Source: Thermoplasmata archaeon
GTDB taxonomy: Archaea; Thermoplasmatota; Thermoplasmata; Lutacidiplasmatales; UBA184
Assembly (NCBI GenBank): GCA_021798195.1
Contig: JAJZYH010000009.1
Coordinates: 56-64,055, forward strand
Direction of reading: 5' to 3'
Length of the DNA: 64,000 nucleotides
Part shown: piece after piece, positions 1 to 59,218 of the stretch
Layout: the number at the start of each line of letters is the position of its first letter
Numbering within the stretch: position 1 is the first letter of the stretch
Notes under the pieces: generated by a model
What the model was told of the DNA's origin: nothing
Databases searched by the model: none
The model's input: the letters and a program-made list of their open reading frames with translations, nothing else
Translations under genes and position numbers: made by a program

Positions 1-317
1 TGTCCTACCGAACCCCCCTACCGGAGGTGGCGATGTTCACTTTCCCCCTTTCCAAGGTCTCTGGAGAACCCCACTCTCCGGGTCCGTCCCTCTCCCACGA
101 ACCGCGGTGGAGGGTCCTGGTTGACGAGGGATGACACCGGAGCGTGTGGGGCGTGGGGTTGGCGTTGGTCCGGCGTCGGCCACAAGCAACGGACCAGTCC
201 CTTCCCGACGATAGTTTCATGGGGACGCCCATCCATCTATCTCCGCATGTTGGGGCGAGCCCTTCCTTCTCATCGGCCGTGGGGCCCTCTCTCACCGCGC
301 TGGCCGTGGTGATCTCC

Positions 318-944
318 ATGGAGGGGCGGGTGGAGGGAGAGCGGGGAGACCATCCATCGGCACCGGTGAGTGAACCCCCCAGTACCTCGGAAAGTCCCCG
401 GCGGCTCATCGCGAAGGTCATCCTCCTGGGAGATGGAGCCGTGGGGAAGACCAGCCTCATCTCCCGCTATGTGTTCTCCATGTTCGATCCGCACTACGTG
501 GAGACGCTGGGGACCAATGTCACGGCGCGACAGGAGCGGGTGGAGACCCCCGAAGGGACCCTCGATGTCCGGCTGCAGATATGGGACGTGATCGGCCAGG
601 AGCGCTTCGACTCCATCTATATGGCGTACTATCAGGAGGCGGACGGAGCCCTCCTGGTCTGCGATGGGACCCGAAGGGAGACCCTGGACGGGATCTCGGG
701 CTGGCTCCATTCCGCGGAGGTGATCCTGGGGAAGTTCCCGGCGGTGTTCGCCATCAACAAGAGCGACCTACCCCCTGCGTTCCTGGCAAAGGATGTGGAA
801 GGCCGCCTCCGGGAGATTTCCCACGGGCAGTTCGCGGGGAGCCCGGTCTACAGTGTGAGCGCACGGACCGGAGAGAATGTTCGAACTGTGTTCCAGGAAC
901 TCACCCGGGCCGTCCTGGAGAGGCGGGGCATCCGGCTGGTCTGA
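318..944 (+). CDS. Ras-superfamily small GTPase (Rab/Ras-like) with a short N-terminal extension
   Basis: G1 GDGAVGKTS, G3 WDVIGQERF, G4 NKSD and G5 SAR motifs are readable in the translation. An internal ATG at 318 (MEGRVEG...) is preferred over the ORF start at 144. Confidence 0.6.
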   Translation: MEGRVEGERGDHPSAPVSEPPSTSESPRRLIAKVILLGDGAVGKTSLISRYVFSMFDPHYVETLGTNVTARQERVETPEGTLDVRLQIWDVIGQERFDSIYMAYYQEADGALLVCDGTRRETLDGISGWLHSAEVILGKFPAVFAINKSDLPPAFLAKDVEGRLREISHGQFAGSPVYSVSARTGENVRTVFQELTRAVLERRGIRLV

Positions 945-4552: not shown

Positions 4553-6055
4553 TCAATAGGTGGGCATCGAGGGGTCGACCCGTTGCGCCCAGGCGTCGAG
4601 CCCTCCCTTCAGGGTCCGGACCTTGGTGAACCCCATGGTCTGGAGGAACTTCACCGCGTCGGCGCTACGCCCTCCCACCTTGCAGTAGACCACCACGTCC
4701 TCCGACGTGGAGAGCTCCCCCAGGCGCTCGGCGAGGCTGTTCCGGGGGATCAGCTTGGAGCCGGGCAGGCGGCAGATCTCGTATTCGCCCGGCTCCCGGA
4801 CATCCACCAGGGTGATGGGGGCGCTCTGGTCCAGGAGCGACTTGAGGTCCTCGGGCTCGATCTCGAGCTCGGGGGGGAGGATCGTGGGGGTCCCGAGGCC
4901 GCAGAACTCCTGGTAGTCGACGAGGGACTTCTGCGTCGCATGGGGACCGCAGAGGACGCAGTCCGGGTCCTTCCGGATCTTGAGCTCCCGGAACGTCGTG
5001 CCCAGGGCATCCACCAGGAGGAGCCGCCCGATGAGGGGCTCCCCCTTCCCCAGGAGGAGCTTCACCACCTCGACGCCCTGGAGGGTTCCCACGAGCCCCG
5101 GGAGGAGGCCCAAGACCCCGCCCTCCGCGCAGGACGGTACCAGCCCGGGAGGCGGAGGCTGGGAGTAGAGGCACCGGTAGCAGGGTCCCCGGGAGGCATC
5201 GAAGACGCTCACCTGGCCTTCGAACCGGTAGATGGAGCCGTAGACGTTGGGCTTCTTCAGCAGGACGCAGGCGTCGTTCACCAGGTAGCGGGTGGGAAAG
5301 TTGTCCGTCCCGTCCACCACGACGTCGTACCGGGCGATGATGTCCAGGGCGTTCTCGCTGGAAAGGTGCACGTCATGCTTCACCACCTTCACATCCGGAT
5401 TGAGGTCCCGGATGCGCCGCTCCGCCGCCTCCAGCTTGGGGTGGCCCACGTCCGTCGTGCCGAAGAGCACCTGCCGCTGGAGGTTGCTCGCGTCCACCGT
5501 GTCAAAGTCCACGAGTCCCAGGGTCCCCACGCCTGCGGCGGCGAGGTACAGGGCGAGGGGAGAGCCGAGCCCTCCCGTTCCCACGAGGAGCACGCGGGAG
5601 GCGAGGAGCTTCCGCTGCCCGGCGAGGCCCACCTCGGGGAGGATCAGGTGGCGGCTGTAGCGGCGCATCTGCTCCGGGCTCAGCTTCTGGACGGTGGAGG
5701 TCGCGGTGCGGGGGGGCGCGGGGGAACGATGGAGAGCGGGGTACGCCACGGCCCCGGGGGACCCACCCGCGATGGAAGGGATGATGGTGATGACGTCTCC
5801 CGGCTTCACGGGGGTCGCCTCCCTCTGGAGGTATCGGACATCCTCGTCGTTCACGTAGACGATCACGAAGTTCCGGAGCCTCCCGTCCTCGGTGAAGAGG
5901 TGCCGCTGGATGGCCCCGTATTTCCGGGTGAGCTCGCTGAGGGCCTCTCCCACCGTGGCTCCGCTCGTCGCGACCTTCGCAGCTCCGCTGGTGAATCCCC
6001 GCAAGGGGGTCGGTATCCGTATCTCCACGCTCATGGTGCTCTCTCCTTCGTTCAT
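4553..6055 (-). CDS. Fusion protein: CysO/MoaD-like ubiquitin-fold sulfur-carrier domain (ends ...IIPSIAGG) + ThiF/MoeB-type E1 adenylyltransferase + C-terminal rhodanese (MoeZ-like)
   Basis: A roughly 91-aa N-terminal beta-grasp domain ending in GG, a linker, then E1 motifs (VLLVGTGGLGSP, CxxC pairs) and a rhodanese domain. Confidence 0.8.
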   Translation of the reverse strand: MNEGESTMSVEIRIPTPLRGFTSGAAKVATSGATVGEALSELTRKYGAIQRHLFTEDGRLRNFVIVYVNDEDVRYLQREATPVKPGDVITIIPSIAGGSPGAVAYPALHRSPAPPRTATSTVQKLSPEQMRRYSRHLILPEVGLAGQRKLLASRVLLVGTGGLGSPLALYLAAAGVGTLGLVDFDTVDASNLQRQVLFGTTDVGHPKLEAAERRIRDLNPDVKVVKHDVHLSSENALDIIARYDVVVDGTDNFPTRYLVNDACVLLKKPNVYGSIYRFEGQVSVFDASRGPCYRCLYSQPPPPGLVPSCAEGGVLGLLPGLVGTLQGVEVVKLLLGKGEPLIGRLLLVDALGTTFRELKIRKDPDCVLCGPHATQKSLVDYQEFCGLGTPTILPPELEIEPEDLKSLLDQSAPITLVDVREPGEYEICRLPGSKLIPRNSLAERLGELSTSEDVVVYCKVGGRSADAVKFLQTMGFTKVRTLKGGLDAWAQRVDPSMPTY

Positions 6056-6501
6056 GGGACTTCCGTATGGGATTGGACCTTGAGGGCGCGCTCCTCGAAC
6101 TTCATGCCGTCCGGGGTGAGTTCGAAGGCCCGGATCTCCCGGCCCTTCCCTCTCTCCACCCGCAGGACCAGGTAGGCGTACCAGGGCCAGGCATGGCCCC
6201 GGTCGAACTCGCTGGGATGGGCCGGATGGTCGGGGTGAGAGTGGTAGAACCCCAGGATCGTCCGGCCAGATCCCTCGAGCTCCTCCTCCGTCCTCCGGAT
6301 CTCCTCCGGGGCGATGACGTACCGACGGGATCGCTCCGCGGCCTGGACGTTGGTGGCCCGCCGGACCTCGTCCACCCGACGCGTCCCCCAGGGGGTGGTG
6401 GGCATGGGACCCAGGAGGAACCCGCAGGCCTCCTCGGGGTAGGTCTCCTCGGCGTGGCGGACGATCTCCTCAAGGTGTGCCTCCCGGAGGGTCACGTCCA
6501 T
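6052..6501 (-). CDS. JAMM/MPN+ metalloprotease (Mec+ / CysO-cleaving type)
   Basis: EEACGFLLG ... HSHPDHPAHPSEFD is an exact JAMM motif (E...HxHx7Sx2D). Start MDVTLREAH at 6501 is preferred. ATGA overlap with the E1 gene start. Confidence 0.8.
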   Translation of the reverse strand: MDVTLREAHLEEIVRHAEETYPEEACGFLLGPMPTTPWGTRRVDEVRRATNVQAAERSRRYVIAPEEIRRTEEELEGSGRTILGFYHSHPDHPAHPSEFDRGHAWPWYAYLVLRVERGKGREIRAFELTPDGMKFEERALKVQSHTEVP

Positions 6502-6538
6502 GGGGGGAGGGGCATCCGGAGCCTCCGCCCCGGGCACA

Positions 6539-7591
6539 TCAGCGATCCCCGTCGTTCCAATACTGTTCCCCAAGGTACCTGTCACCTCCATCGGGAAGAA
6601 GCGTCACGAGGACTCCCATCTCGAGGCCCGCCCCGAGCTTGAGGGCCGCATGGACCGCGGCGCCGGAAGAGGTCCCCACGAAGAGCCCCTCCTCCCGGGC
6701 GAGGCGGAGGGTCATGCGCTGCGCCTCATCGGTGCTCACCCGGCTCCAATCGTCGATGTAGCGATCGTCCAGGATCCCGGGGCGCAGAGAGGTCTCCAGG
6801 TGCTTCAGGCCCTCGATCCCATGGAGGGGGGAATCGGGAACGACCCCGGTCACCCGGATCTCCGGTCGGCGTTCCTTGAGGTAGCGCCCCACCCCGGTGA
6901 TGGTCCCTCCGGTGCCCACCCCCGCCACGAAGTGGGTCACGAGCCCCGCGGAGTCCCGCCAGATCTCGGGACCCGTGGTCCGGTAGTGGGCCATGACGTT
7001 GCAAGGGTTGTTGTACTGGTCGGGATAGAAATAGCGGTCCGGGTGGTCCTTCGCGAGCTCCTTCGCGAGCCTCTGGGCGCCGTCCGTCCCCTCGAGGGGG
7101 GACGAGAACCGGATCCGGGCCCCGTAGGCCAGGATCCTGCGCTGCCGTTCCATGGATGCGTTCTTGGGAAGGATGATCTCCACCGGGAAGCCCCAGAGCG
7201 CCCCCAGGAGGGCGTAGGCGATGCCGGTGTTCCCACTGGAGGCATCGAGGAGCGTCTTCCCCGGCGGCAGGCGTCCGTCGGCGAGGGCCGATCGGACCAT
7301 GGCAAGGGCGGCGCGGTCCTTCACCGACCCTCCGGGATTGAAGTGCTCGGCCTTGGCCCAGAGCTCCACCCCCCGGGGAAGGTCACGCCCTACCCGCGAC
7401 AGCCGGAGAAGGGGGGTCCCTCCGATCCGGGAGATCACGTCCGAGGGGGGTCCGGATCCGGAGGCACCCCGGGGACCGAGGCGTGGCGCGGACCCGGGAA
7501 CGGGTTCCCCGCACGCGGCGGGATCCCTGGGTCCCATGAGACTGTCGGGTTCCATGCCGTTTCCTCGCAGTTCCTCTTCGGGGGAGACCAT
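6539..7591 (-). CDS. cysM: Cysteine synthase, CysM/CysK family (PLP-dependent)
   Basis: GGTPLLRL, GGSVKDRAAL and SSGNTGIAYA motifs. The N-terminal roughly 50 aa of the ORF is probably not translated (start uncertain). Confidence 0.85.
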   Translation of the reverse strand: MVSPEEELRGNGMEPDSLMGPRDPAACGEPVPGSAPRLGPRGASGSGPPSDVISRIGGTPLLRLSRVGRDLPRGVELWAKAEHFNPGGSVKDRAALAMVRSALADGRLPPGKTLLDASSGNTGIAYALLGALWGFPVEIILPKNASMERQRRILAYGARIRFSSPLEGTDGAQRLAKELAKDHPDRYFYPDQYNNPCNVMAHYRTTGPEIWRDSAGLVTHFVAGVGTGGTITGVGRYLKERRPEIRVTGVVPDSPLHGIEGLKHLETSLRPGILDDRYIDDWSRVSTDEAQRMTLRLAREEGLFVGTSSGAAVHAALKLGAGLEMGVLVTLLPDGGDRYLGEQYWNDGDR

Positions 7592-29410: not shown

Positions 29411-30388
29411 TCAGGTGTACTCGTAGAACCCGCGGCCGGTCTTCCGGCCGTAGTGCCCCGCGTCGACGAGCCTCCGCAGGCCCACCGCGGGGCGGTACTT
29501 GGGGTCGCCGTATTCCCGATGAAGGATCTCGGCCACCTCGAGGGCCACGTCGAGGCCGATCATGTCGGCGAGCTCCAGCGGACCCATGGGCATGCCCGCG
29601 CCGGCCTTGAGCGCCTGATCCATGTCCCGGGCCGACGCCACGCCCTCATCCAGCGCGAAGCAGGCCTCGTTGAGCATGGGGATGAGAAGGCGGTTCACGA
29701 GGAAGCCAGGGACCTCCTTCACCCGGATGGGGACCAGGGGATACCGGTGGTTCCGCAAACCCTGCAGGAACTCGATCACGTCGGTCACGGTATCCTCCCG
29801 GGTGTCCACGCCCGGGACCACCTCGACCAGGGGAAGGGTGTAGGGAGGGTTGAAGAAGTGGGCGATGAGCGTGTTGGAGACGTGGTGGAGCCCCTTCGCG
29901 AGCCGCGTGATGGAGAGCGAGGATGTGTTGCTCGCGAGGATGGCATGCTCGGGGAGGACCTTGTCGAGATCCTCGAAGACCTGCCGCTTCACGTCCGCCC
30001 GTTCGAAGGCGGCCTCGATCACGAGGTCCACGTCCGAGAAATCGGAGTAGTCCGTGGTGCCGTGCACCCGGGCCTTCAGGGCCTCTCCCATGGCCGGCGT
30101 GAATCGGGGCTTGAGGCGGTTCTCGATGGCCTTCTTCTGCTCCTGCGTCAACTGGACCCCCAGATCCTCGATCCGGGCGATCTCCTTCGGCGCCCTCCCG
30201 GCGTGGAACGCCACGAGCTCGTCGACGATGGACTTCACCTTGGAGAGCCCCCGTTCCACCAGGGGAGGGGAGACATCCTTCAGCACCACCGGGATCTCGT
30301 TGAGCGCCAGGACTTCCGCGATGGCTGCCCCCATGGTACCGGCCCCCACGACACCCGCCTTGCGCACGTAGATCATCGACCCACCCAC
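29411..30388 (-). CDS. 3-hydroxyacyl-CoA (3-hydroxybutyryl-CoA) dehydrogenase
   Basis: VGAGTMGAAIA Rossmann motif and HBD family body. Confidence 0.85.
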   Translation of the reverse strand: MGGSMIYVRKAGVVGAGTMGAAIAEVLALNEIPVVLKDVSPPLVERGLSKVKSIVDELVAFHAGRAPKEIARIEDLGVQLTQEQKKAIENRLKPRFTPAMGEALKARVHGTTDYSDFSDVDLVIEAAFERADVKRQVFEDLDKVLPEHAILASNTSSLSITRLAKGLHHVSNTLIAHFFNPPYTLPLVEVVPGVDTREDTVTDVIEFLQGLRNHRYPLVPIRVKEVPGFLVNRLLIPMLNEACFALDEGVASARDMDQALKAGAGMPMGPLELADMIGLDVALEVAEILHREYGDPKYRPAVGLRRLVDAGHYGRKTGRGFYEYT

Positions 30389-30476
30389 ACTGCCCGGACC
30401 CTTCCCCCGTAATTAACCATCGCCAGCGGGGGTTCCCGGAGGGGTTAAATTCTCACCCTCAGTCGCGCCCCCCCGC

Positions 30477-30592
30477 GCGGGGATGGCCCAGCCCGGTAAG
30501 GCGCGGGATTGCTAATCCCGTGGTGCTCGCACCTCGGGGGTTCAAAGATGGGGAGGAAAGGCTCCTCCCCATGGAAATTCCCCCTCCCCGCG
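30477..30592 (+). tRNA. tRNA-Ser (anticodon GCU) with a roughly 32-nt non-canonical intron in the T-loop; no encoded CCA
   Basis: Hand fold: acceptor GCGGGGA/TCCCCGC, D-stem GCC/GGC with a long D-loop, anticodon stem CGGGA/TCCCG with loop TTGCTAA, long variable arm GGTGC/GCACC, T-stem GGGGG ... CCCCC separated by TTCAAA plus an inserted hairpin ATGGGGAGG-AAAGGCT-CCTCCCCAT (30548-30572). Confidence 0.65.
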
Positions 30593-30595
30593 TCC

Positions 30596-30946
30596 TCATC
30601 CGGAACCCGAAACAGAGTGGCCCCCTCGAGACGTGGGGGAGTTCGGCGGCTCCCGCCGCCAACGCCATATCCCATCATCTCCCGGTTCCACAAACCCGCG
30701 CTCCCCGGCTTCCGGTGGAGGGTGAGGGAACAGGACCAGGACGCGGCCCCCCTCCTCCAGATCCACCCATCCCAGGGCATGGGGCGCCTTCCAGGGCGGG
30801 GGTGGGACCTCAAGTTCCGTGACCGCCACGGTGCGCCCCTGCCCGTGAAGCGTCTCCTCCCGTGTCGCCGTCCCGCACAGAGGGCAGCGCACCCGGGAAG
30901 GCACGAAGGTCCTTCCGCAGGGATCACAGCGGGAGACGCGGATCAC
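30596..30946 (-). CDS. DUF35-family protein (C4 zinc ribbon + OB fold; thiolase partner)
   Basis: CDPCGRTFVPSRVRCPLCG zinc ribbon followed by an OB-like region. GTG start immediately after the thiolase stop, GGAGG RBS. Confidence 0.6.
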   Translation of the reverse strand: MIRVSRCDPCGRTFVPSRVRCPLCGTATREETLHGQGRTVAVTELEVPPPPWKAPHALGWVDLEEGGRVLVLFPHPPPEAGERGFVEPGDDGIWRWRREPPNSPTSRGGHSVSGSG

Positions 30947-32082
30947 GGCCCCTCCTCCCGGCCCAGGAGGGTCACGAAGTTGTGCGATCCCAGGCCCCCC
31001 ACCGACTGGGTGAGGCCCATTCGGGGATGACCCGCCTGCAGAGGGCCGGCTTCCTGGGAGAGCTGACGGGCCACCTCCACGATCTGCGCCAGTCCCGAGG
31101 CCCCCACCGGATGTCCTCGGCCCAGGAGCCCTCCGGAAGGGTTGATGGGTAGGGACCCTCCGGGGGCTCCGTTCCCGTTCCGCATCCAGGTGAGGGCTTC
31201 CCCGGGACCGCAGAAGCCCACGTCCTCCAGATCGACGAGCTGGAAGGGGGCGAACGCGTCGTGCAGTTCCGCCACATCCACCTCTCGGGGGGAAGAGCGG
31301 GCCATCTCGTAGGCGCGTCGGGCCGCCGTCCGGGTCGCCTCGAATCGCGTGGGGTCCGGGCGGGAGGCCACCTCCAGCACGTCGGTCCCCTGTCCCCACC
31401 CGCGCACGCGTACGGGTCCCGGCCGGTGCTCCAGCAGGATGCCCGCTGCCCCGTCACTGATGGCCGAGACGTGGAGGAGGCGGAGGGGTCTCGCGATCAC
31501 CCGGCTCCGGTTCACCTCCTCCAGGGTGACCGGGGTCCGGAATTGGGCATTGGGATTCTTCACGGCATTTTCCCGGTTCTGCACGGACACCTCGCCCAGC
31601 TCCTCCCAGGGGATCCGGTGGCGCGTCAGGTACTCCTGCGCCACGAGAGCCGCCAGGGCTGGCATCGTGGCCCCGTGCCGGATCTCGTGGGGGGAGAGGG
31701 ACCGGGCGAGGGCACCGGTGACCGCCTCCGTGGGGGCTCCCGTCATCTTCTCCCCGGCCAGCACCAGGGCGGACTCGTACCGGCCTCCGGAGACGAGTTC
31801 GCACGCGATGTGGAAGACGCCGGCTCCGCTGGCCGACGCGGTGTCCACGTGATACCCGTCCACGCCGGTGAGCCCCAGACGGTCCGCCATGCGGGGGACA
31901 AGGTTTTCGAGTCCTCCCAGGACGGCGGGGGCCATGCTGCCCACGAGCAGGAGTCCGGGCCGGCGCGACGCGGGGGGCGCGCGCTCCAGGGCCTCGCGGG
32001 CCGCCTCTTCCAAGAGCTCTTCGAGCCCTTCCTTCCGCCGGCCGAACCGGCCGATCCCGGTCCCGGATATGGAAAGGGTCAC
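30943..32082 (-). CDS. Thiolase-like protein (archaeal acetyl-CoA acetyltransferase / SCP-x-type thiolase)
   Basis: Thiolase body with C-terminal GHPVGASGLAQIVE. GTG start at 32082 overlaps the hjc stop (GTGA); the ORF upstream of that looks non-coding. Confidence 0.75.
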   Translation of the reverse strand: MTLSISGTGIGRFGRRKEGLEELLEEAAREALERAPPASRRPGLLLVGSMAPAVLGGLENLVPRMADRLGLTGVDGYHVDTASASGAGVFHIACELVSGGRYESALVLAGEKMTGAPTEAVTGALARSLSPHEIRHGATMPALAALVAQEYLTRHRIPWEELGEVSVQNRENAVKNPNAQFRTPVTLEEVNRSRVIARPLRLLHVSAISDGAAGILLEHRPGPVRVRGWGQGTDVLEVASRPDPTRFEATRTAARRAYEMARSSPREVDVAELHDAFAPFQLVDLEDVGFCGPGEALTWMRNGNGAPGGSLPINPSGGLLGRGHPVGASGLAQIVEVARQLSQEAGPLQAGHPRMGLTQSVGGLGSHNFVTLLGREEGP

Positions 32083-39285: not shown

Positions 39286-42200
39286 CTAGAGCCGCGCCTC
39301 GTCCCTCGGCTTGGGAAGGCGGACCCTCTGGAGGCCGGGGCTCTGGATCCGCCGGCCGGAAGTCTTGATCGGCTCCGGGGGAGCCGCCTGGAACCAACCC
39401 GGTTCCGGAGGGCTCAGGGGAAGGGAGCACCGGGGGCAGGTGTGGAACTGCACGATGCAGCTGTGACAGATGGTGGCGCCGCACCGGTGCAGGTATTGCG
39501 CCACCCCGCCGCAGCTCTGGCATCGGAATCCTTCCGGGGCGGTGGTGAGCCCGTCCGGTGTGGTCCGGGGGGTGGGCCGGGGCAACTCTCCGGCCGAGCC
39601 CTCCCGGAGGCTTGCCTCCGCCCCGTCCGGTGGGCTCCCGGAGGCTCGAGAGTCCGGATCCTGTTCCTCCGCAAGAGCAGGCTCCGCGGAAGACGTCCCG
39701 GAAGGAGGGCGCCGGGGTTCGGGAGGCACCCGCGTATCAGGGGGGTTCTCGGACAAGGGGATGGTGGGGGATTCTCCCAGCGCCTCCATGCCGCCCAGGG
39801 ATTCCACGGCCTTGAGGACCCGCGCCTTGTAGATCCCCACCCGTAAGTTCCGGACCAGGCGGAAGAGGGTGCGCTCGGAGGACGGGAGCGAGAGGGCCTG
39901 GCGGGCGAGGTCCTCCATCTCCGGGGTCAACGAAAGGTTCTCGGGCCTGAGGTCCATCTTCAGAACGGCCCGCATGTACCCGAAGACCTTCTGCATCTGG
40001 GCGAGAGTGGTGCCGGGGGGGCTCAAGGCCGCCACGTCGGAGAGGGAGAGACCCTTCTTCTCCAGGGCATCGGCCCTCTGGTCCAGGGCGGCCAGGATGA
40101 GATGGTAGCTCAGGTCCTCGAGCTCCTCCATCTCCCCCTCGTTCAGGTCGGGGACGTGGACATCGGGGGTCCGGCCCACGCTGCGGGTCACCGCGTCCAG
40201 GAGGTCGAAGGGGACATGGAGGGTCATGAAGAGGTCGTTCTTGGTGATGGGCCGGTTGAGCTTGGCTTCCAGGAGGAGCGCCTCCTTGCCCAGGGCCTGG
40301 ATGCGGAGGTCCCGCTCCTTCTCCTGGGACTGCCTTTTCCCCTCCCGCGCCGCTTCGAAAGCGGGGTCCAGCTTGAGCGCGTGGTCGAATGCCTCCGCGG
40401 CCTTCTCCGGCTGGTCCAGGGCGAGCAGCATGCGGCCCCTCTGGACGTGCGCCTCCTTGAGGAGGGGATCGATCTGCACGGCCCGGTCGTACGCGCTCAG
40501 GGCCTCGTGGATGTGCCCCAGCTTCTCCCGGACCTCTCCGGCCCGGAGGTACAGCTGGGGGTCGTTCGCCTCGATGGCCAGCGCCCGGCTGTACGCGTCG
40601 GCCGCCTCCTTCCAGCGCTCTAGCCGCGTCTCGAGCTCCGCCCGGCGCAGGAGAAGGGGAAGCGAAGTGGAGTGGATCCCCAGCCCGTGCTCACAGACCT
40701 CCACGGCCAGCTCCAGGGAACCGGCGCCCGCCTCGGCCTCGGCCAGGTAGAGGTAGGCGGCGGGAGACCCCGTGAGGTTGGGCAGCACTTCCCGCAGGAA
40801 GTCGCGGGCCGTGGCGTGGCGTCCCAGGGCGAGGAGGGTCCGGGCGTACCAGATCGCCACCGTCCGGTCGGAGGGTCGGGCCTTCACCAGGGCCTCGAAG
40901 ATCTGGAGCGACTTGTCGAACTCTTCGAGGTTGAAATGGATGCTCCCCCGCAACGTGCTCGCCCGGAACGCGAGGTCCTCCCCCATCGAGGGGGGAAAGG
41001 GAGGGGTGCCCAGGGCTTCCATGGCCGCGAGGGCCTCCCGGAACCGCTGCAGCCGGGAGAGCGCGAGGGCCTTCCGGTACGCCACTTCCGGGGCGAGCCC
41101 GGGTTTCGTCCGGACGGCCCGGTCGTACGACTCCAGGGCCACCTCCACCTTCCCCAGTTCCGCGGCGAGGTCCCCGTGCTCGAGCCAGAGCTCTCCTGAG
41201 TCGGAGGAGGCCCCGGGGTTCTCCAGGAGCGAGGAGAGGGTCTCGAAGGCATCCACCTTCTCCCCCCGGGCGACGTGCAGCCGGTACTTCTCGCGCCAGG
41301 CCCCCGCGTCGTTGGGCTCCAGGAGGAGGATGGCCCGGAGCGAGTAGAGCACCTCCGTGTCCCGCTCCAGGGCCTTGTAGATCTGGGCCCGGAGGCGCCA
41401 GGCCGCGGGGTCGCGGGTGTCCTGGCGGATGAGAGGGTCCAGGTAGGCGGCCGCGTCATTGGGACGTCCCGCCCTCAGGAGCGTCTCGCAGAACTCCAGC
41501 GTGGCGTGCTTGTCCTTGGGGTTGAGCTGGAGACCTCGCTGGAAATAGCCCAGGGCGTCCTGGTAGGCCCCCATCTCCTTGAGCGCCTCCGCCACTTCCC
41601 AGTACGCCTGGGGATCCCGCTCCCCGGCGCTCAGGGTGGCCTTGAGGGCCTGGACCCCTTCCGTGGGCCGTCCCATCTTGAGGAGCACCCGGCCCCTGCG
41701 CCGGAGGTAGAGAGGGTTCCGGGGATCCTTCTGGAGGAGCTGGTCCAGGTAGCCCAGGGCCCGGGCATCCTGCCCCAGCGCCAGGAGGGTCTCGGCAAGG
41801 CCCCAGAGGAGGTCGGCCTCCTCCCTCCCGAGTTCCACGGCGCGGGAGTAGGCTGCCTCGGCCTCGGAAAGGTTGCCGGCTTCGCGAAGGGTGTGGCCCA
41901 GTTCCTTGTAGATGTCTCCCCGGGCCGCGTTGGCCGGGTCGGCGAGGAAGGCCCGGAAGTTCTCCACCGCCCGGGGGAGGTCCTGAAGGAGCTTCGCCGC
42001 CCGGGCGGTCCCCAGGGAACTGGGGTTGCGCAGTTCGTCGGAGAGGCTGGACCGCTCGTAGCTGCGGAGCGCCTCGGTGATCCAGTGGCTCCGTTCCGGG
42101 GAGCCCTCAGGGGTCCGGTAGGCACGGGAGAGGGCGAGGTTCCCCCGCTCCAGGGCCACGTCATACCTGGAGGGGTCCTTCTCGAAGATCCGGTCCAGGA

Positions 42201-43623
42201 TCGCGGGGATCTGATCCACCTTCCCCAGGGCCTGCAGGAGGCCCTTCTTCTGCAGGAGGAGGGCCACATCGTCAGGGTTCCGGGAGAGGAGGTCGTCGTA
42301 GATGCGGAGCGCCTCTTCCCGCTGCGCCGTGGCCCCCAGCCCCTCGGCGAGGTCCCGGAGCGCCGGGGGGTCTCCCGGGACCTGGGCCAGGACGGCCCGG
42401 GCCAGAACGACCTCCACGGCCCACCGGCGGTTCTCCTGGGCCAATCGGAGCCCCTTGCGGATCTCCTCCGTCTCGGAGGGGTGGAGGTGGGCGATCTCCT
42501 GGTACACCTTGAGCGCGGGATCCACCTGGCCGGTCTCCGCGAGGAGGGTCCCCAGCATCTTCTCCGCGTCCAGGTTCCCGGGCGAGACCGCGAGCAGGGC
42601 GCGGCATGCCTCGATGGCGACATCCTTGCGGTCCAGGCGGAGACCCAGGTCCCTCAGGGACTGGAGGTTCGCGAGATTGCGGGGGTCCAGGGACATGACG
42701 CGCCGCCGGACCTCGAGGGCGAGGCCCGACTCGGACGGGGACCCCTCGAGGGTCCCCGCCACCTGCTGGAGCGCCACGGGATCGAGGGGGCTTCCCTGTT
42801 CCAGGAGCTCCTTCACGATGGGGGCGGCCTCCGGGAACCGGCCCAGGTCCAGGAGAAGGCGCGCCTGGAGGAACCGGTACCGGGGTTCTCCCGGAAGGAG
42901 TTCCGCGGCACGCCCCGCCTCCACGAGGGCCTTCTCGGGCTCCTTCCCCGCCTGGTGGATCTGCGCCCGGATGAAATGGAGCTCGGGGTCGTTGGGGCTC
43001 CCCTGGAGGAGCTGATCGGCGAGATCGGTGGCCACCTTCGCGTTCCCCAGGGAGAGGGCCACCGCGAGCTTGAGCCGGAGTGCCTTGGGATGGCCCGGGA
43101 CCAGTTTGAGCGCCCGGTCCACGTAGAGCGTGCTCGACGGTTCCAGCTGCTGGGCATGGAGATAGCTTTCCACCGCCTCCTGGGGCCGTCCCAGGATCTT
43201 GAGCGCATCCCCCCGGCTCGCCCAGATCGACTTGTCGCGGGGATCGAGGGTCAGGGCTCGGTCCAGGAGGCCCAGGACCTTGTCCACCTCCAGGTTCATG
43301 GAGAGCAGGATGACGGCCTTGTGCTGGAGGGCGCTGGGAAGGTCGGGGGCGAACCGGAGGGCCTCCTCCACCGCCTCCCGGGCCTCGTTGCCCAGGGAGA
43401 GGCGGTACAGGTCGAATGCGGCCTGGTCCAGGATGCGCCCCACCGCGGGGGCGTCGGGCATGAGGGCCTCCCGGTTCTCCCGGACCGATCCCAGGAGGGC
43501 CCGGAGCCGTTCCGCCTGGCGGTCGAAGAGCTGCGCCTGCCCGGCCTCCTCGGCCTCCTGGGCCAGCCCCTGGATCCGTTCCAGGATGGGCGAGGAGGGC
43601 CGGCCGTCCGATTGAGATGCCAT
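39286..43623 (-). CDS. Giant tetratricopeptide-repeat (TPR) protein (1445 aa) with a C-terminal Cys/His zinc-finger module
   Basis: Dozens of TPR-like A/L/Y-rich repeats. C-terminus CQSCGG...HRCGATICHSC...HTCPRC. Confidence 0.7.
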   Translation of the reverse strand: MASQSDGRPSSPILERIQGLAQEAEEAGQAQLFDRQAERLRALLGSVRENREALMPDAPAVGRILDQAAFDLYRLSLGNEAREAVEEALRFAPDLPSALQHKAVILLSMNLEVDKVLGLLDRALTLDPRDKSIWASRGDALKILGRPQEAVESYLHAQQLEPSSTLYVDRALKLVPGHPKALRLKLAVALSLGNAKVATDLADQLLQGSPNDPELHFIRAQIHQAGKEPEKALVEAGRAAELLPGEPRYRFLQARLLLDLGRFPEAAPIVKELLEQGSPLDPVALQQVAGTLEGSPSESGLALEVRRRVMSLDPRNLANLQSLRDLGLRLDRKDVAIEACRALLAVSPGNLDAEKMLGTLLAETGQVDPALKVYQEIAHLHPSETEEIRKGLRLAQENRRWAVEVVLARAVLAQVPGDPPALRDLAEGLGATAQREEALRIYDDLLSRNPDDVALLLQKKGLLQALGKVDQIPAILDRIFEKDPSRYDVALERGNLALSRAYRTPEGSPERSHWITEALRSYERSSLSDELRNPSSLGTARAAKLLQDLPRAVENFRAFLADPANAARGDIYKELGHTLREAGNLSEAEAAYSRAVELGREEADLLWGLAETLLALGQDARALGYLDQLLQKDPRNPLYLRRRGRVLLKMGRPTEGVQALKATLSAGERDPQAYWEVAEALKEMGAYQDALGYFQRGLQLNPKDKHATLEFCETLLRAGRPNDAAAYLDPLIRQDTRDPAAWRLRAQIYKALERDTEVLYSLRAILLLEPNDAGAWREKYRLHVARGEKVDAFETLSSLLENPGASSDSGELWLEHGDLAAELGKVEVALESYDRAVRTKPGLAPEVAYRKALALSRLQRFREALAAMEALGTPPFPPSMGEDLAFRASTLRGSIHFNLEEFDKSLQIFEALVKARPSDRTVAIWYARTLLALGRHATARDFLREVLPNLTGSPAAYLYLAEAEAGAGSLELAVEVCEHGLGIHSTSLPLLLRRAELETRLERWKEAADAYSRALAIEANDPQLYLRAGEVREKLGHIHEALSAYDRAVQIDPLLKEAHVQRGRMLLALDQPEKAAEAFDHALKLDPAFEAAREGKRQSQEKERDLRIQALGKEALLLEAKLNRPITKNDLFMTLHVPFDLLDAVTRSVGRTPDVHVPDLNEGEMEELEDLSYHLILAALDQRADALEKKGLSLSDVAALSPPGTTLAQMQKVFGYMRAVLKMDLRPENLSLTPEMEDLARQALSLPSSERTLFRLVRNLRVGIYKARVLKAVESLGGMEALGESPTIPLSENPPDTRVPPEPRRPPSGTSSAEPALAEEQDPDSRASGSPPDGAEASLREGSAGELPRPTPRTTPDGLTTAPEGFRCQSCGGVAQYLHRCGATICHSCIVQFHTCPRCSLPLSPPEPGWFQAAPPEPIKTSGRRIQSPGLQRVRLPKPRDEARL

Positions 43624-47275: not shown

Positions 47276-50125
47276 CTAGGATTCCGGGATCGTGGGGGCC
47301 GCGGGAGCCTCCGGGTTCATCGCGGGCTCCCGGCTGCGTGCGAGGAGGGGGCGCAGGAACTGGCCGGTGTAGGAACGGCGGTTCCGGGCCACCTCCTCGG
47401 GGGTTCCCTCGGCCACCACCTCGCCGCCCCGGTCGCCCCCTTCGGGTCCCAGGTCGATGAGCCAATCGGCGCACTTCAGGACGTCCAGGTTGTGCTCGAT
47501 GACCACCACGGTGTTCCCCCCGGAGCGCAACCGGTAGAGGACCTCCAGGAGGCGGCGCACATCCTCGAAATGGAGGCCCGTGGTGGGCTCATCCAGGAGG
47601 TAGAGGGTGCGGCCCGTGGGAACCTTCGCGAGCTCGTAGGCGATCTTGATCCGCTGCGCCTCCCCTCCCGAGAGCGTCGTGGAGCTCTGGCCCAGCTTCA
47701 CGTAGCCCAGGCCCACGTCGGAGAGCAGGGCGAGGCGGCTCTCGATGCGCCGGTGCGACGCGAAGAACGCCCGGGCCTCGTCGACGGTCATGTCCAGCAC
47801 GTCGGCGATGCTCTTGTCCTTGAACTTCACCGCGAGGGTTTCCCGGTTGAACCGGCGTCCCTTGCAGGTCTCGCACGCGACGTAGACGTCGGGCAGGAAG
47901 TGCATCTCGTACCGGAGGATCCCCTCCCCCTCGCACTCCTCGCATCTCCCTCCCCGGACGTTGAAGGAGAACCGTCCGGGGCCGAACCCCCGGGCGCGCG
48001 CCTCGGGGAGCTGGCTGTAGAGTTCCCGGATGGGGGTGAAGAGACCCGTATAGGTGGCCGGGTTGGACCGTGGGGTCCGCCCGATGGGGGACTGGTCGAT
48101 GAGGAGCACCCGGTCCAGTTCGTCCACGCCCTTCAGGAACTCGTGCTTTCCCGGAACCGCCGTCCCCGTCCGGAAATGCCGGCGGAGCGCCTTGTAGAGG
48201 ATCTCCTCCACGAGGGTGCTCTTGCCGCTCCCCGAGACGCCGCTCACGCACGTGAGGGTCCCCAGGGGGATGCGCACGGTGATGCCCTTCAGGTTGTTCT
48301 CCGCGGCCCCGTGAACCTCGAGCCAGGATCCCCGTCCCCGCTCCCGGCGGGGAGAGATGGGGATGGCCCGCCGACCGGTGAGGTAATCGGCCGTGAGGGA
48401 GCGGGGGGCCCCGCCGATCCTTCCCGCCGGGCCGTTATAGAGCACCTCGCCCCCGTGGATCCCCGCTCCCGGCCCCAGGTCCACGATCCAGTCCGCGGCC
48501 CTCATGGTGGCCTCGTCGTGCTCCACCACGAGGACGGTGTTCCCCAGGTCCCGGAGCGTCTTCAGGGTCCGGAGCAACCGGTCGTGGTCCCGGGGGTGCA
48601 GCCCGATGGAAGGCTCGTCCAGGATGTAGAGGACCCCCACGAGCCCGCTCCCGATCTGCGTGGCCAGGGCGATCCGTTCCGCCTCCCCCCCCGACAGGGT
48701 GGCGCTGGAGCGGTCCAGGGAGAGGTAGGAGAGTCCCACGCTCTCGAGGAATCCCAGGCGGGCCAGGATCTCCTTCACCACCTCCCCCACGATCTCCCGT
48801 TCCCGGTCGGTGAGCGAGAGGCCCCGGAAGAACGCGAGCGCCTCCTCGATGGTCATGGCGCTCACGTCGGCGATGGAGCGGTCCCGGACGGTGACCGCGA
48901 GGATCTCCGGCTTGAGGCGCCGGCCCTGGCACTCCCGGCAGGGGGTGAACGTGAGGAATCCCATGTAGTAGTCCTTCATCCCGGGGCTCTGGGTCTCCCG
49001 GAACCTGCGTTCCACGAGGGGGAGGAGCCCCTCCTGGAACCATGCGTCCTGCCAGTGCCGTTCCGCCGCACCGGGGGAGGTCCCGTAGAGGAGCGCCTGG
49101 AGGGCCTTCTCCGGGATCTCCGACACCGGTGCGGCGGGGTCGAAGCGGAACATGCGGGCGAACCGGCGCACCGAATCCGCCGACGGGAAGATCCCTCCCA
49201 CCGCGATGGCCCCCTTGCCCAGGGGACGGTCCCGGTGGGGGAGGACGAGGTCCGGGTCGGCATGGAGGGTCGCTCCGATGCCGGAGCAGGCCTTGCAGGC
49301 CCCGAACGGGTTGTTGAAGGAGAACATCCGGGGCTGGAGCTCCTCCAGGGAGAAGCCGCACGCGGGGCAGGCCCGCGCCGAGGAAAAGAGGGTCCGCTTC
49401 CCTTCTTGGGTCCGGACCACCACGAGGCCCTGGGAAAGGCGCTCGCAGAGTTCCACGCCCTCGGCGAGGCGGCTATGGTTCTCCTCCCGGACCACCAGGG
49501 AGTCCACCACCACCTCCAGCGTGTGCTTCTTGTTCTTCTCCAGATGGACCGAGGACCCGGGGAGCCGGACCTCCACCCCATCCACCAGCAGGCGCCGGAA
49601 CCCCTTGCGGGAAAGCTCGTCGAGCACCTCCCGGTGCTCGCCCTTCTTCGCCCGGACCACGGGGGCGATCAGCTGGATGGTCTCGCCGGACAGGGAGCCC
49701 CGGATGGTGGAGAGGATCCGGTCGATCCCCTGCGCGGAGATCTCGAGGCCATGGGTGGGACAATGCGGGACGCCGATCCGGGCGAAGAGCAGGCGCAGGT
49801 AGTCATGGATCTCCGTGGTGGTCCCCACGGTGGATCGGGGGTTGCGGCTTCCCGCCCTCTGCTGGATGGCGATGGCCGGGGAGAGCCCCTCGATGGAATC
49901 CACCTCGGGCTTGTCCATCTGGCCCAGGAACTGCCGCGCGTACGACGAGAGGCTCTCGATGTAGCGCCGCTGCCCCTCGGCGTACAGGGTGTCGAAGGCG
50001 AGGGAGCTCTTCCCCGACCCGCTCACCCCCGTCACCACCACGAAGAGGTTGCGGGGGATCTCCAGGGTCACGTTCTTCAGGTTGTGCTGCCGGGCCCCCC
50101 GGATCCGGATGACGGAATCGGACAT
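47276..50125 (-). CDS. uvrA: Excinuclease ABC subunit A (UvrA)
   Basis: Tandem ABC ATPase modules with zinc fingers. [18 protein letters not shown] start. Confidence 0.9.
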
Positions 50126-55611: not shown

Positions 55612-55684
<73 letters not shown>

Positions 55685-56042
55685 CTTCTCGTCCGCTTCC
55701 TCGGGTCCATGAGATCTCCCATTCCATGGGATGGGATCCGGAACGGGACGTTCCTCCCCGGAGATCCGGCCCCCCCTCCGGCGGATGGTGGCATCGCATC
55801 GGGGCCATCCCCCGTGGTGGGGGGAAGCCAGCGATTGGGTGCTCCGGGTCGCCGCGGATGACCCTGCGTAGATCCCCTCCGTCCGTCATCCGTCGATGGA
55901 AGCCGCTTGTCGACCCCTCGGGCTCGTGAGCGGGTTCGAGGGGGTCGGTCCTTCGGAGAGGTGTGGCCCCAACGGGAGTCCGGGTGAAGGGAGCGCCCCC
56001 GGAGGAGGCGCTCCAGCATCACCCCGGGATCCCTTGCGCCTT

Positions 56043-56582
56043 CTACTTCTTGAGCGAGCCCGGGGCGGGCACGAACCAGAGATCGGTGATGGAGTAGGAG
56101 GGCTCCTGGGCGAAGCGGGCCTCGATGGGCATCCCCACGTAGATGTCCTCTTCCCCGCAATCCTTGAGCCGGGAGAGAAGGAGGCTCTTCGCCCCCTCGA
56201 ACTCCACCAGGACCAGGTTGTACGGCGTCTCCTTCAGGAAGGCCTCGGACCCGTAGTGGCACGTGGTCCAGGCGTGCACCTTGCCCTTGGTGGGCAGGTC
56301 GACCCATTGGGTCGGCTCGCCGCAGAACTGGCAGTGCCCTCGCGGAGTGGCGAAGGTGTACTGGCAGGCGGTGCATCGCGTGCCCCGGATCCGTCCCTCG
56401 GCGAGGCCCAGGAAGAACGGGGAATCCTCCGCGTAGCTGTGGATGTACTGGATCGTGTAGGGGGAACGGATGTAGAGGTTCTCCGAACCCTCCTTGTCCA
56501 CGAACAGGGCCGCCCCGGTCCTCTCGAGTTCCGCCTGGACCTCCGTGAACCGGGAGGTCTTCTTGAGCTCCTTGGCGCACAT
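56043..56582 (-). CDS. DUF35-family protein (zinc ribbon + OB fold), thiolase partner
   Basis: CTACQYTFATPRGHCQFCG ribbon followed by an OB-fold region. Confidence 0.7.
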   Translation of the reverse strand: MCAKELKKTSRFTEVQAELERTGAALFVDKEGSENLYIRSPYTIQYIHSYAEDSPFFLGLAEGRIRGTRCTACQYTFATPRGHCQFCGEPTQWVDLPTKGKVHAWTTCHYGSEAFLKETPYNLVLVEFEGAKSLLLSRLKDCGEEDIYVGMPIEARFAQEPSYSITDLWFVPAPGSLKK

Positions 56583-56583
56583 C

Positions 56584-57912
56584 TTACTTCCCCTCCATGA
56601 TGGTCACGGTCACCGAGGATCCGGTGCCCGCGTGACTGTGGATGGCGCCCCGCTTGGCCTTGGGGATCTGCAGCCGGTCGCTCCCGAAGTGCTTCCCGAT
56701 GGTCCCCTGGAGCTGCCAGAAGGCGAAGACCGCCTGCATGAGCCCCGTGGCTCCCACGGGGTGTCCGCAGGCGATGAGGCCGCCGGAAGGGTTCACCGGG
56801 ATGGTCCCGGCGCGGGGGACGGGGAACCCGTAGTCGATGTTGGGAAGGAACGCATCGCCCCGCTCCACGAAATCGTACCCCTCGCCGTACTTGCACAGTC
56901 CCAGGTCCTCGTAGGTCTGGATCTCGCTGGAGGAGTAGGCGTCGTGGAGCTCGATGAAATCGAGGTCCTTCCCGGGGTTCTCGATGCCCGCGTGCCGGTA
57001 AGCTTCGAGCCCGGCGGAACGGCCCGCCCGGAACGAATGGACCCCCGGATACTCCAGATGGGCGTAGTCGGAAGGCTTTTCGTGCGGCATCAGGAGGACC
57101 TTCCCGAACGGCCGGTCGGCGAGCCGCATGGTATCGGTCCCGCATCCCACCCCCTTGATGAGGATGGGGTGGTCCGTGAGCTCCTTCGCCCGCTCCTCGG
57201 TGCAGAGGATCGCGGCGGCGGCGCCATCGGACATGGTGCAGATCTGCTCCCGGGTGAGGGGGTAACTCACCATGTCCGATCCCAGGACGCCCGCCACGTC
57301 GATGTTCTTGGGATACTGGGCGTAGGGGTTGTAGAGTGCGTTCCGGTGGTTCTTCACCGACACCTTGGCCATCACACGGGTGCCGTACTCGATGGCCTTG
57401 CGCTGGGCCTCCCGCTCGTCGGAAATGTGGGAGAACTTGGCCCGGCGCACGTACTCAAAGAGGTGCCGCATCACCATGAGGGCGTAGTACCCCGTGTAGA
57501 ACCCGCCCAGAGGGAAGTCGAAGTTGGTGTCGCTCGCGAGGGCGATGAACTCGTTTCCCTTCCAGGTGGCCACCCGGCTCATGGTCTCGAACCCGATGGC
57601 GAGGCAGGTGTCCATGCGCCCCGAGGCCACGGCCTCGTAGGCGGCCTGGAAGCACTCGCCGCCCGTGGCGCCTCCCCATTCGATCCGGACGGAGCCCCGA
57701 GGGTTGAGGCCCAGGTAGTCCTGGACCATGCTCGCGGCCTTGAGCTGGCGGGTGAAGTGGTCCGAGAAGTACGAGATCCGGGTCCCGTCGATCCCGTCGA
57801 GACGCAGGTTGGGCACCTCGGCGCGCGCGCGGTCGAACGCGTTCTTGCACATCAGGCGGAAGTCCATCTCGGGGTGGGCCTTCGCGAACTTCGTGACCCC
57901 GCCGGATACCAT
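56584..57912 (-). CDS. Thiolase (archaeal acetyl-CoA acetyltransferase / SCP-x-like)
   Basis: Thiolase body with catalytic Cys context (GGATGGECF), C-terminal GHPVGATGLMQ. Start taken at MVSGGV (57912). Confidence 0.75.
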   Translation of the reverse strand: MVSGGVTKFAKAHPEMDFRLMCKNAFDRARAEVPNLRLDGIDGTRISYFSDHFTRQLKAASMVQDYLGLNPRGSVRIEWGGATGGECFQAAYEAVASGRMDTCLAIGFETMSRVATWKGNEFIALASDTNFDFPLGGFYTGYYALMVMRHLFEYVRRAKFSHISDEREAQRKAIEYGTRVMAKVSVKNHRNALYNPYAQYPKNIDVAGVLGSDMVSYPLTREQICTMSDGAAAAILCTEERAKELTDHPILIKGVGCGTDTMRLADRPFGKVLLMPHEKPSDYAHLEYPGVHSFRAGRSAGLEAYRHAGIENPGKDLDFIELHDAYSSSEIQTYEDLGLCKYGEGYDFVERGDAFLPNIDYGFPVPRAGTIPVNPSGGLIACGHPVGATGLMQAVFAFWQLQGTIGKHFGSDRLQIPKAKRGAIHSHAGTGSSVTVTIMEGK

Positions 57913-58045
57913 GTAGACGCGCCGTCCCCCCCGTCGGGGGGACGACGGCGTCGGAGTTCCGGAAAAGACATCTCGGGGGCCTTCTCCCTTCTTGCTCTGC
58001 GGCATCGGGTTTCGTCTCCTGCCCCTTTGGGAAAGGGAGGGAGTC

Positions 58046-59218
58046 TTAACCTTTGGCGACGTCAGACGCCGTTCGAGGCGCTGGGACTTCTTCCACGGAG
58101 CCGTCCTCGCCTCTCGGGGCGGCTTCCTGCGGGAATTCCAGGAGGAACCTCCGGTAGACCGCATGGCATCGCTCCAGGGAACCAAGGTCCACCCATTCGT
58201 CGTCCGCGTGGGCCCCTTCCCCGGAGGGTCCGAAGACCACGGTGGGAGCCCGGCTCCCGAACACGTTGAAGTCGCCCACGGCGGGCATGTGGAAGCGCCT
58301 CACCCGTCCCAGCTCCACCTTCGCAGCCCGAAGGAACCGCTGGACCCAGGCGTCCTTGGGATCCCCCTCGAACGCCGGTAGCCAGGGGGTGGTACGCGGG
58401 GCCGGCTCCACGTCCCAGCGCAGGGAGGAGTCCGCGCGGGACCCTCCCCGGGTGAGCCGCAGGAGTTCGTCCCGGTCGGCGGCGGAGTCGCGTCCGGGCG
58501 GGAGCGCGTGGTCCAGGCGGACCCGGACCCTTCGCGGGAGGGTGACCTCCCCCTCAGCCTCCGAGTGGATCGAGAGGGGGACGAAGTCCCCGGGGAGGGA
58601 CCCCACGAAGCGGGACATGGCGAGCACGGGGTTGGGAGGTGCCTTCGTGGCCCGGAGTTCCTCGCCATGACCTCCCGTGCCCCGGACCGAGACCTGCCAG
58701 ACGATCCGCCCGTTCGCGGAGACGGCGCAGCGCTCCCACGTGGGTTCCGGGACGAGGACGACGCTGGGGTCCTGGGGGAGATGGCGAAGGACCTCCCAGG
58801 CGCCCGCGGATTCCGCCTCCTCGTCGGTGGTCACCACGAGCCCCAGGTTGAACCGCGGGTCGTCCCGGAACTCCTCCAGGAGGAGCAGGGAGATGGCGAG
58901 TCCGCCTTTCATGTCCAGTGCCCCTCGCCCGTACATCTTCCCCCCCGCCACCTCGCCGGCGGGGTGGCTGGGTTCCTCGCCCGGAGGGACCGTGTCCGCG
59001 TGCGTGGCCCACAGGACCGTGGGCCGACGCGGGTCCGGGGGATGCCCCGCCACCAGGACGGGCGCGAACCCCGGTCCCGTGAGCCGGTCCGTGGGGATGC
59101 GCGCGGCGGAAAGGAACTTCTCCAGCCGGACCAGAAGCGTGTCGCAGTCTCCGGTGGGGCTCGCAATCTTCACGAGGGTCTCGCTGAGGGCCCGGAGGCG
59201 GTCGGGAACGGGAGCCAT
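58046..59218 (-). CDS. M20-family metallopeptidase/deacylase (ArgE/DapE/LysK-like)
   Basis: M20 motifs (HADTVPPG, GRGALDMKGG, TDEEAESAG). Divergent from argF. Confidence 0.7.
   Translation of the reverse strand: MAPVPDRLRALSETLVKIASPTGDCDTLLVRLEKFLSAARIPTDRLTGPGFAPVLVAGHPPDPRRPTVLWATHADTVPPGEEPSHPAGEVAGGKMYGRGALDMKGGLAISLLLLEEFRDDPRFNLGLVVTTDEEAESAGAWEVLRHLPQDPSVVLVPEPTWERCAVSANGRIVWQVSVRGTGGHGEELRATKAPPNPVLAMSRFVGSLPGDFVPLSIHSEAEGEVTLPRRVRVRLDHALPPGRDSAADRDELLRLTRGGSRADSSLRWDVEPAPRTTPWLPAFEGDPKDAWVQRFLRAAKVELGRVRRFHMPAVGDFNVFGSRAPTVVFGPSGEGAHADDEWVDLGSLERCHAVYRRFLLEFPQEAAPRGEDGSVEEVPAPRTASDVAKG

Follow-up and report, generated by a model that had tools for sequence, protein, structure and literature searches.

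Non-canonical introns bounded by bulge-helix-bulge (BHB) motifs were reportedly described in Crenarchaeota by Marck and Grosjean in 2003 and by Sugahara et al. in 2008. The splicing endonuclease EndA cuts such motifs after the second bulge nucleotide. Based on published definitions, a BHB comprises two 3-nt bulges and a helix of four positions, with the splice sites located within the bulges (PMC6379350), and the helices h and h' must close the bulges with two or more Watson-Crick pairs (PMC7714728).

The published list of non-canonical intron sites includes the junction between tRNA positions 59 and 60 (PMC4090602). At this site, ARMAN-2 carries introns in tRNA-Cys (hBH type) and in tRNA-Pro (strict BHB) (PMC3239211). 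Reviews tie non-canonical positions to broad-specificity endonucleases of the (alpha-beta)2 and epsilon2 types (PMC4090602, PMC4033280). They restrict the introns of Euryarchaeota that use an alpha4 or alpha'2 EndA to the canonical position (PMC4090602, PMC4033280) and name K. cryptofilum as the only archaeon with an alpha2 EndA that has non-canonical introns (PMC4033280). 'Cluster II' Euryarchaeota, to which Thermoplasmata belong, are described as encoding alpha'2 exclusively (PMC5829648), and the EndA of T. acidophilum is listed as an alpha'2 enzyme of narrow specificity (PMC6379350). We found no report of non-canonical introns in Thermoplasmata in the literature; with incomplete coverage, this is weak evidence.

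Here, we analysed a stretch of 64,000 nucleotides (the window) and read one locus as a functional gene for tRNA-Ser(GCU) from a Thermoplasmata archaeon of high GC content, with a 32-nt BHB intron at 59/60 whose splicing we infer from sequence. We put the probability of this reading at roughly 0.88. While this kind of element is already known, its occurrence in the Thermoplasmata lineage is unexpected.

As in ARMAN-2, the intron lies at 59/60, T-loop nucleotides 54-57 pair with the 3' end of the intron and the T-stem forms the exonic outer helix (PMC3239211). Unlike ARMAN-2, a member of DPANN, the host belongs to Thermoplasmatota, a different tRNA is interrupted and the central helix contains a conserved A.G. 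ARMAN-2 also has a broad-specificity epsilon2 EndA and around 56% disrupted tRNA genes (PMC3239211), whereas the other tRNA gene of the window, tRNA-Phe, is uninterrupted. The intron resembles the non-canonical introns of Crenarchaeota (Thermoproteales, Aeropyrum pernix) in being short, BHB-bounded, located outside 37/38 and free to vary in its interior (PMC4090602). [quoted passage not shown] With the 37/38 introns of Euryarchaeota (Haloferax volcanii tRNA-Trp and tRNA-Met; PMC7714728) it shares the predicted recognition element (two 3-nt bulges around a helix of four positions, with outer helices) and, presumably, processing by EndA and RtcB, but it is found in the T-loop instead of the anticodon loop. 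Those 37/38 introns are cut by alpha'2 EndA, the class of enzyme described for Thermoplasmatales.

The gene and its parts are located as follows:

30445-30450, plus strand: hexamer TTAAAT, resembling a TATA box, at 27-32 nt before the mature 5' end
30477-30546, plus strand: 5' exon, 70 nt (5' half of the acceptor stem, D-arm, anticodon arm, variable arm, 5' half of the T-stem and T-loop nucleotides 54-59, TTCAAA)
30477-30483 and 30585-30591, plus strand: acceptor stem GCGGGGA/TCCCCGC, 7 perfect pairs
Within the 5' exon, plus strand: D-stem GCC/GGC, 3 bp, with an 11-nt loop containing A14, G18G19 and A21
30509-30515, plus strand: anticodon loop TTGCTAA
30511-30513, plus strand: anticodon GCT, for AGY serine codons (ARAGORN call on the spliced sequence)
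30547-30578, plus strand: intron, 32 nt, between tRNA positions 59 and 60
30579-30592, plus strand: 3' exon, 14 nt (T60, 3' half of the T-stem, 3' half of the acceptor stem and discriminator G73)
30592, plus strand: discriminator G73, read in the sequence

With ^ marking the splice sites, the gene (30477-30592, plus strand) reads GCGGGGA UG GCC CAGCCCGGUAA GGC G CGGGA UUGCUAA UCCCG U GGUG CUCG CACC UC GGGGG UUCAAA ^ GAUGGGGAGGAAAGGCUCCUCCCCAUGGAAAU ^ U CCCCC UCCCCGC G. Once 30547-30578 is removed the cloverleaf is complete, with the 7-bp acceptor stem, the D-arm, a 5-bp anticodon stem with a 7-nt loop, and a 5-bp T-stem with a 7-nt T-loop. The tertiary nucleotides U8, A14, G18G19, A21 and G53-C61 are all readable, and the spliced T-loop UUCAAAU fits UUCRANY. 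The variable arm is 15 nt long and contains a 4-bp helix (GGTG/CACC, loop CUCG) that covaries (G-C to U-A).

A long variable arm, a 3-bp D-stem and discriminator G73 are serine identity elements, and all three of these class-II tRNA-Ser features are present. An initial annotation of the window, made from sequence alone, had already proposed a class-II tRNA-Ser(GCU) gene at 30477-30592 with an insert of about 32 nt inside the T-loop. Our analysis agrees on the identity of the gene, on the insert, the removal of which restores the T-loop TTCAAAT, and on the coordinates of the acceptor stem, D-stem, anticodon loop, T-stem halves and TTCAAA plus hairpin. It departs from that annotation in the variable-arm helix, for which 5 bp had been given: a fifth pair would leave a loop of 2 nt. 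The end of the 3' exon (30579-30592) does not encode CCA. AGY codons make up 25% of the serine codons in 32 genes of the window, so this isoacceptor is needed.

Standard tRNA finders do not report the gene. ARAGORN with intron search, which the initial annotation had put forward as a check, does not call the unspliced locus: with and without the intron option, its only call in the window is tRNA-Phe-GAA (55612-55685, plus strand, 70.1 bits), which is uninterrupted. Rfam at the gathering threshold likewise finds this single tRNA and leaves the tRNA-Ser locus uncalled. In a low-threshold local scan, the 5' two-thirds of the unspliced gene (30477-30531) align to the tRNA model RF00005, skipping the T-arm, with 27.1 bits (E = 8.6e-4) compared to a gathering score of 29 bits; the same low-threshold scan of the whole window reveals no additional partial tRNA. 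Such failure is expected for a gene with a T-loop intron and is not evidence against it. The 84-nt sequence left after deleting the 32 nt at 30547-30578 is called by ARAGORN as tRNA-Ser(gct), with a full class-II cloverleaf, a long variable arm and G73. Rfam gives 57.7-58.5 bits to intron-less tRNA-Ser(GCU) genes whose T-arm and acceptor 3' half are identical, and it finds none of the T-loop-interrupted versions. The minimum free energy (MFE) fold of the unspliced 116 nt is a cloverleaf with an extra hairpin (-64.4 kcal/mol, z = -3.79), and none of 200 shuffles folds as well.

The exon-intron junctions form a BHB with the following parts:

30536-30540 and 30580-30584, plus strand: outer helix h, which is the T-stem, GGGGG/CCCCC, 5 bp
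30541-30544 and 30573-30576, plus strand: central helix H, UUCA (U54 U55 C56 A57) with GGAA, pairing as U-A, U-A, C-G and A.G
30545-30547, plus strand: 5' bulge AA^G, predicted cleavage after 30546
30577-30579, plus strand: 3' bulge AU^U, predicted cleavage after 30578
30548-30557 and 30563-30572, plus strand: inner helix h', which is the intron hairpin (30548-30572), 10 bp, loop AAGGC

The two 3-nt bulges are found on opposite strands, four positions apart, in all six distinct versions of the gene that we recovered (below), and H consists of three standard pairs plus the conserved A.G. Helix h has 5 bp; h' has 10 bp in the window and at least 4-5 bp in the relatives, with compensatory changes. 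The MFE fold gives the same 10 bp and 5-nt loop for the intron hairpin, which corrects the 9 bp of the initial annotation. That annotation was right to predict a BHB at the junctions but expected a relaxed one (hBH or HBh'), whereas the motif is near-strict: we classify it from its sequence as hBHBh'-type with one non-standard A57.G in H, and hence not as a textbook-strict BHB. The mismatch occupies the fourth position of H (30544 and 30573 in the window) and is conserved in 6 of 6 clade versions.

Shape alone would be poor grounds for this assignment. A scan of the window for BHB shapes (minimum lengths of 5 bp for h and 4 bp for h', with three or more of the four positions of H paired) returned 299 matches in this 69%-GC sequence, against 227-291 in shuffles, and the shape by itself thus carries no weight, although the match at 30541 has the longest h' of all 299. 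The case accordingly rests on the register of the cut and on comparative data. The T-loop UUCAAAU results from just one of the registers that are possible, the one cut after A59 and before U60. A pattern scan of metagenomes in which the insert was optional found 74 loci, nearly all of them intron-less tRNA-Ser(GCU) genes reading GGGGG TTCAAAT CCCCC TCCCCGC G. The T-arm and acceptor 3' half of the predicted spliced product are identical to those of dozens of such intron-less relatives, and the same T-arm is found in a tRNA-Ser(GCU) gene of another Thermoplasmatota genome (L009, below).

Other kinds of insert were also considered. A box C/D sRNA within the intron is rejected: the 32 nt contain neither a C box (RUGAUGA) nor a D box (CUGA), and no Rfam snoRNA scores above threshold. 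Group I and group II self-splicing introns have a structured ribozyme core of several hundred nucleotides; the insert is just 32 nt long and no Rfam intron family matches it.

Six public contigs of the host species (L001-L006) with an identical 3-hydroxyacyl-CoA dehydrogenase (3HCDH) gene contain an identical tRNA, with no gene called in the gap. Five further versions are found on syntenic contigs on which 3HCDH is 71-78% identical and the order thiolase / DUF35 / tRNA / 3HCDH is kept. In every one of them, 59/60 is interrupted by an insert of 31-33 nt. The insert-bearing loci are L060 and L093 (identical to each other), L087/L088, L089/L090, L094 and L096, making six distinct versions with the window. 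Syntenic look-ups for P0030, P0039 and P0115 found no adjacent tRNA, synteny being lost at those loci, and a scan of public genome contigs with AGGCGNGGGATTGCTAATCCC gave 4 loci, none from the host species. The inserts compare as follows (bulge nucleotide, two sides of h', GGAR strand of H and 3' bulge):

Window: G AUGGGGAGG..CCUCCCCAU GGAA AU^U
L060: G GCGG..CUGC GGAG GU^U
L088: G GCGG..CCGC GGAA CA^U
L090: A GCCGC..GCGGC GGAA CA^U
L094: G GCCG..CGGC GGAA GA^U
L096: A GAGGG..CCCUC GGAG AC^U

The 5' bulge is AAG or AAA throughout, and the 3' bulge always follows NN^T, its first two nucleotides being AT, GT, CA, CA, GA and AC. A single BHB candidate is common to all versions and yields the same 84-nt product every time. 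Across the six versions, the mean pairwise identity is 0.93 for exon 1 and 1.00 for exon 2, compared to 0.61 for the intron, 0.58 for the upstream 50 nt and 0.53 for the downstream 30 nt.

Pairing is conserved despite this drift. For the cloverleaf, H and the outer 4 pairs of h' (31 pairs in six versions, alignment A1), standard pairs occupy 186 of 186 cells, and sliding the partners by 1-3 columns lowers this to 51-65%. Double-sided compensatory changes occur in 5 pairs: 3 in h', 1 in the anticodon stem (G-C / A-U / U-A) and 1 in the variable stem. Of the 4 outer pairs of h', which can be aligned across versions, 3 show compensatory double changes. H retains its three standard pairs in all six, with a single change, from U-A to U.G. 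Covariation scores 0.187 compared to 0.064 ± 0.020 in shuffles (0 of 500 as high), figures that, coming from six related sequences, are supportive and not formal probabilities. Frozen exons and a drifting intron sequence, with intron length, bulges and pairing kept, are the pattern predicted for a spliced BHB intron.

This pattern bears directly on the possibility that the locus is a tRNA pseudogene whose T-loop was inactivated by a palindromic element or hairpin, with another, intact tRNA-Ser(GCU) gene doing the work. In its favour, standard tRNA finders reject the locus, and hairpins and BHB-like shapes abound in this GC-rich genome. Nonetheless, the exons are 93-100% identical while flanks and intron are 53-61% identical, across lineages in which the neighbouring protein is 71-78% identical. 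The intron helix and the stems of the anticodon and variable arms show compensatory changes, and none of the six versions departs from the insert length of 31-33 nt, the two 3-nt bulges or the GGAR strand. The TATA-like box is conserved as well: an A/T-rich hexamer (TTAAAT, TTTATG or TTATTG) stands at -32 to -26 in 6 of 6 clade versions, within flanks of around 70% GC that are around 58% identical. A dead gene would not show such a pattern, and we consider a pseudogene very unlikely. The conserved hexamer fits an archaeal TATA box and is probably the promoter. Downstream of the tRNA-Ser gene, no obvious oligo-T terminator is found.

A further alternative is a hairpin that stays in place, giving a mature tRNA-like RNA with an expanded T-loop arm, or processing by an activity other than EndA. 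The conserved A.G mismatch in the central helix and the reportedly narrow specificity of the Thermoplasma-type EndA (PMC6379350) speak for such an outcome. Against it stand the exact BHB geometry (two 3-nt bulges four positions apart, closing helices of at least 4 bp) and the hairpin sequence, which varies freely as expected for a discarded spacer. Moreover, the predicted cut gives a T-loop identical to that of intron-less relatives. The tertiary contact between T-loop and D-loop needs an uninterrupted T-loop. We hold this alternative to be very improbable.

Under the preferred reading of a spliced BHB intron, transcription would start from the TATA-type promoter around 30 nt upstream. In the precursor, U54-A57 of the T-loop would pair with the last GGAA of the intron, with the T-stem on one side and the 10-bp intron hairpin on the other. 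EndA would cut within each bulge, after A59 and before U60, and an RtcB-type ligase would join the exons into an 84-nt class-II tRNA with the T-loop UUCAAAU and the predicted junction ...GGUUCAAA^UCCCCC.... The 32-nt intron would probably be circular after ligation, and CCA would be added post-transcriptionally. In principle, any archaeal EndA should accept a near-strict hBHBh' motif, wherever it occurs in the tRNA, and so no new mechanism would be required. Neither EndA nor RtcB is encoded among the around 45 genes of the window.

The protein-coding surroundings of the tRNA gene are:

29411-30376, minus strand: 3-hydroxyacyl-CoA dehydrogenase (3HCDH)
30596-30949, minus strand: DUF35/ChsH2-type gene with zinc ribbon and OB-fold, 117 aa (Pfam OB_ChsH2_C E = 3.5e-4, zf-ChsH2 E = 5e-3)
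30943-32082, on the opposite side of the tRNA from 3HCDH: thiolase

The DUF35-type gene is convergent with the tRNA, its stop codon lying 4 nt from the tRNA 3' end, and its start overlaps the stop of the thiolase gene. It is 49% identical at the amino acid level in the syntenic L060 and is called in L089, L093 and L094, but it is uncalled in the six public assemblies of the host species.

An ORF of 160 aa also exists on the minus strand across the tRNA gene (30445-30927), and its existence is what would favour minus-strand coding here, with the tRNA-like fold a coincidence. The initial annotation had dismissed this ORF as spurious, and rightly so: its GC content is flat by codon position (0.63, 0.68 and 0.74 for GC1, GC2 and GC3), compared to a GC3 of 0.85-0.93 in real genes, it has no Pfam match and it is uncalled in the six public assemblies. 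The true neighbouring frame is a different one, that of the DUF35-type gene ending at 30596, and the tRNA features are conserved with covariation. We give minus-strand coding next to no credence.

A second interrupted tRNA-Ser(GCU) gene is found at 5002-5113 (plus strand) of L009, contig JAUVCJ010000151.1 of the metagenome-assembled genome (MAG) Thermoplasmatota archaeon CSMAG_268. Its T-arm is intact and a 28-nt insert lies in the D-loop, with the bulges GT^T and AA^A, a central helix of 4 perfect pairs (CTCG/CGAG) and an h' of 7 bp (CCAAGGT/ACCTTGG). From its sequence the insert appears HBh'-like, the exonic helix not being directly adjacent. Cutting after the second bulge nucleotide leaves an 11-nt D-loop, CAGCTCGGTAA, matching the CAGCCCGGTAA of the window. 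The same cut rule thus yields the orthologous T-loop in the window and an 11-nt D-loop in L009, and is corroborated by these two predicted products. ARAGORN misses the L009 gene and Rfam detects its 3' part only (33.3 bits).

Two AT-rich metagenome contigs, Ga0209609_10006535 (L046; 1534-1722, plus strand) and Ga0172365_10052129 (L061; 2525 to the contig end, which it runs off, plus strand), contain tRNA-Ser(GCU) genes that an insert of around 105 nt interrupts at 59/60, as in the window; the central helix, UUCA/UGAA, is perfect. Their 3' exon sits 105 nt downstream and reads T CCCCC CCTCGGC G. Exon 1 is common to both, while the insert interiors differ, and the insert contains repeated CAGCTGG...GCACGCAAA-like units. 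The L046 intron, which is unrelated, has a Watson-Crick A-U pair where the clade versions have A57.G. In the MAG Thaumarchaeota archaeon COS1_bin_11 (L008; 7082-7170, minus strand), an ARAGORN call of 'tRNA-???', its anticodon having four bases (aggc), may be an artefact or an intron-containing tRNA.

The archaeal origin of the window, for which the initial annotation had used the intron as main evidence, has independent support. The window encodes Hjc, adjoining the thiolase gene, an archaeal-type TopA and Rad50, all of which point to Archaea. It also encodes UvrA and SufB, and its GC content is 65-72% (69% overall). Homologues of SufB (in a cluster at 90% identity) and of 3HCDH carry the NCBI names 'Thermoplasmata archaeon', 'Candidatus Thermoplasmatota archaeon' and 'Euryarchaeota archaeon'. 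Based on these names, we assign the host to a high-GC Thermoplasmata MAG lineage (for example GCA_027378535.1) and not to a crenarchaeon. The intron is therefore not diagnostic of Crenarchaeota, Nanoarchaeota or ARMAN, the lineages classically rich in introns. Nor are non-canonical introns strictly confined to Archaea, as had been assumed: nucleomorphs and C. merolae have them too (PMC4090602).

The gene escapes default tRNA finders, and in the six public assemblies of the host species the gap is left empty. Genomes annotated in this way would seem to be without a decoder of AGY serine codons. We tentatively suggest, at slightly under even odds, that a Thermoplasmata clade stably keeps non-canonical tRNA introns, in which case either alpha'2 EndA processes such BHBs in vivo, including the A.G in H, or a broader EndA has been acquired. 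If true, either outcome would revise the published rule that EndA type and intron position co-evolve. The predicted D-loop intron of L009, a Thermoplasmatota MAG not placed relative to the window clade, would be a separate case in the same isoacceptor. Together with the conserved 59/60 intron, it provides natural test cases for the rule, and the six orthologous versions offer covariation data on a T-loop BHB that are few but clean.

The window also contains a second thiolase and DUF35 (OB_ChsH2_C / zf-ChsH2) pair (56043-58185, minus strand), which adjoins tRNA-Phe and echoes the surroundings of tRNA-Ser. A Ras/Roc-family small GTPase with an N-terminal extension of around 90 aa is encoded at 144-944 (plus strand; Pfam Ras E = 3.5e-29). 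A ubiquitin-like modifier cluster at 4553-6591 (minus strand) comprises a 500-aa E1-like MoeB/UbaA protein, which has a SAMP/MoaD-like domain at its N-terminus and a rhodanese domain at its C-terminus, and after it a JAB/MPN deubiquitinase-like gene. Finally, a protein of 1445 aa that consists mostly of TPR repeats is encoded at 39286-43623 (minus strand), and a full-length bacterial-type UvrA (1359 bits) at 47276-50125 (minus strand).
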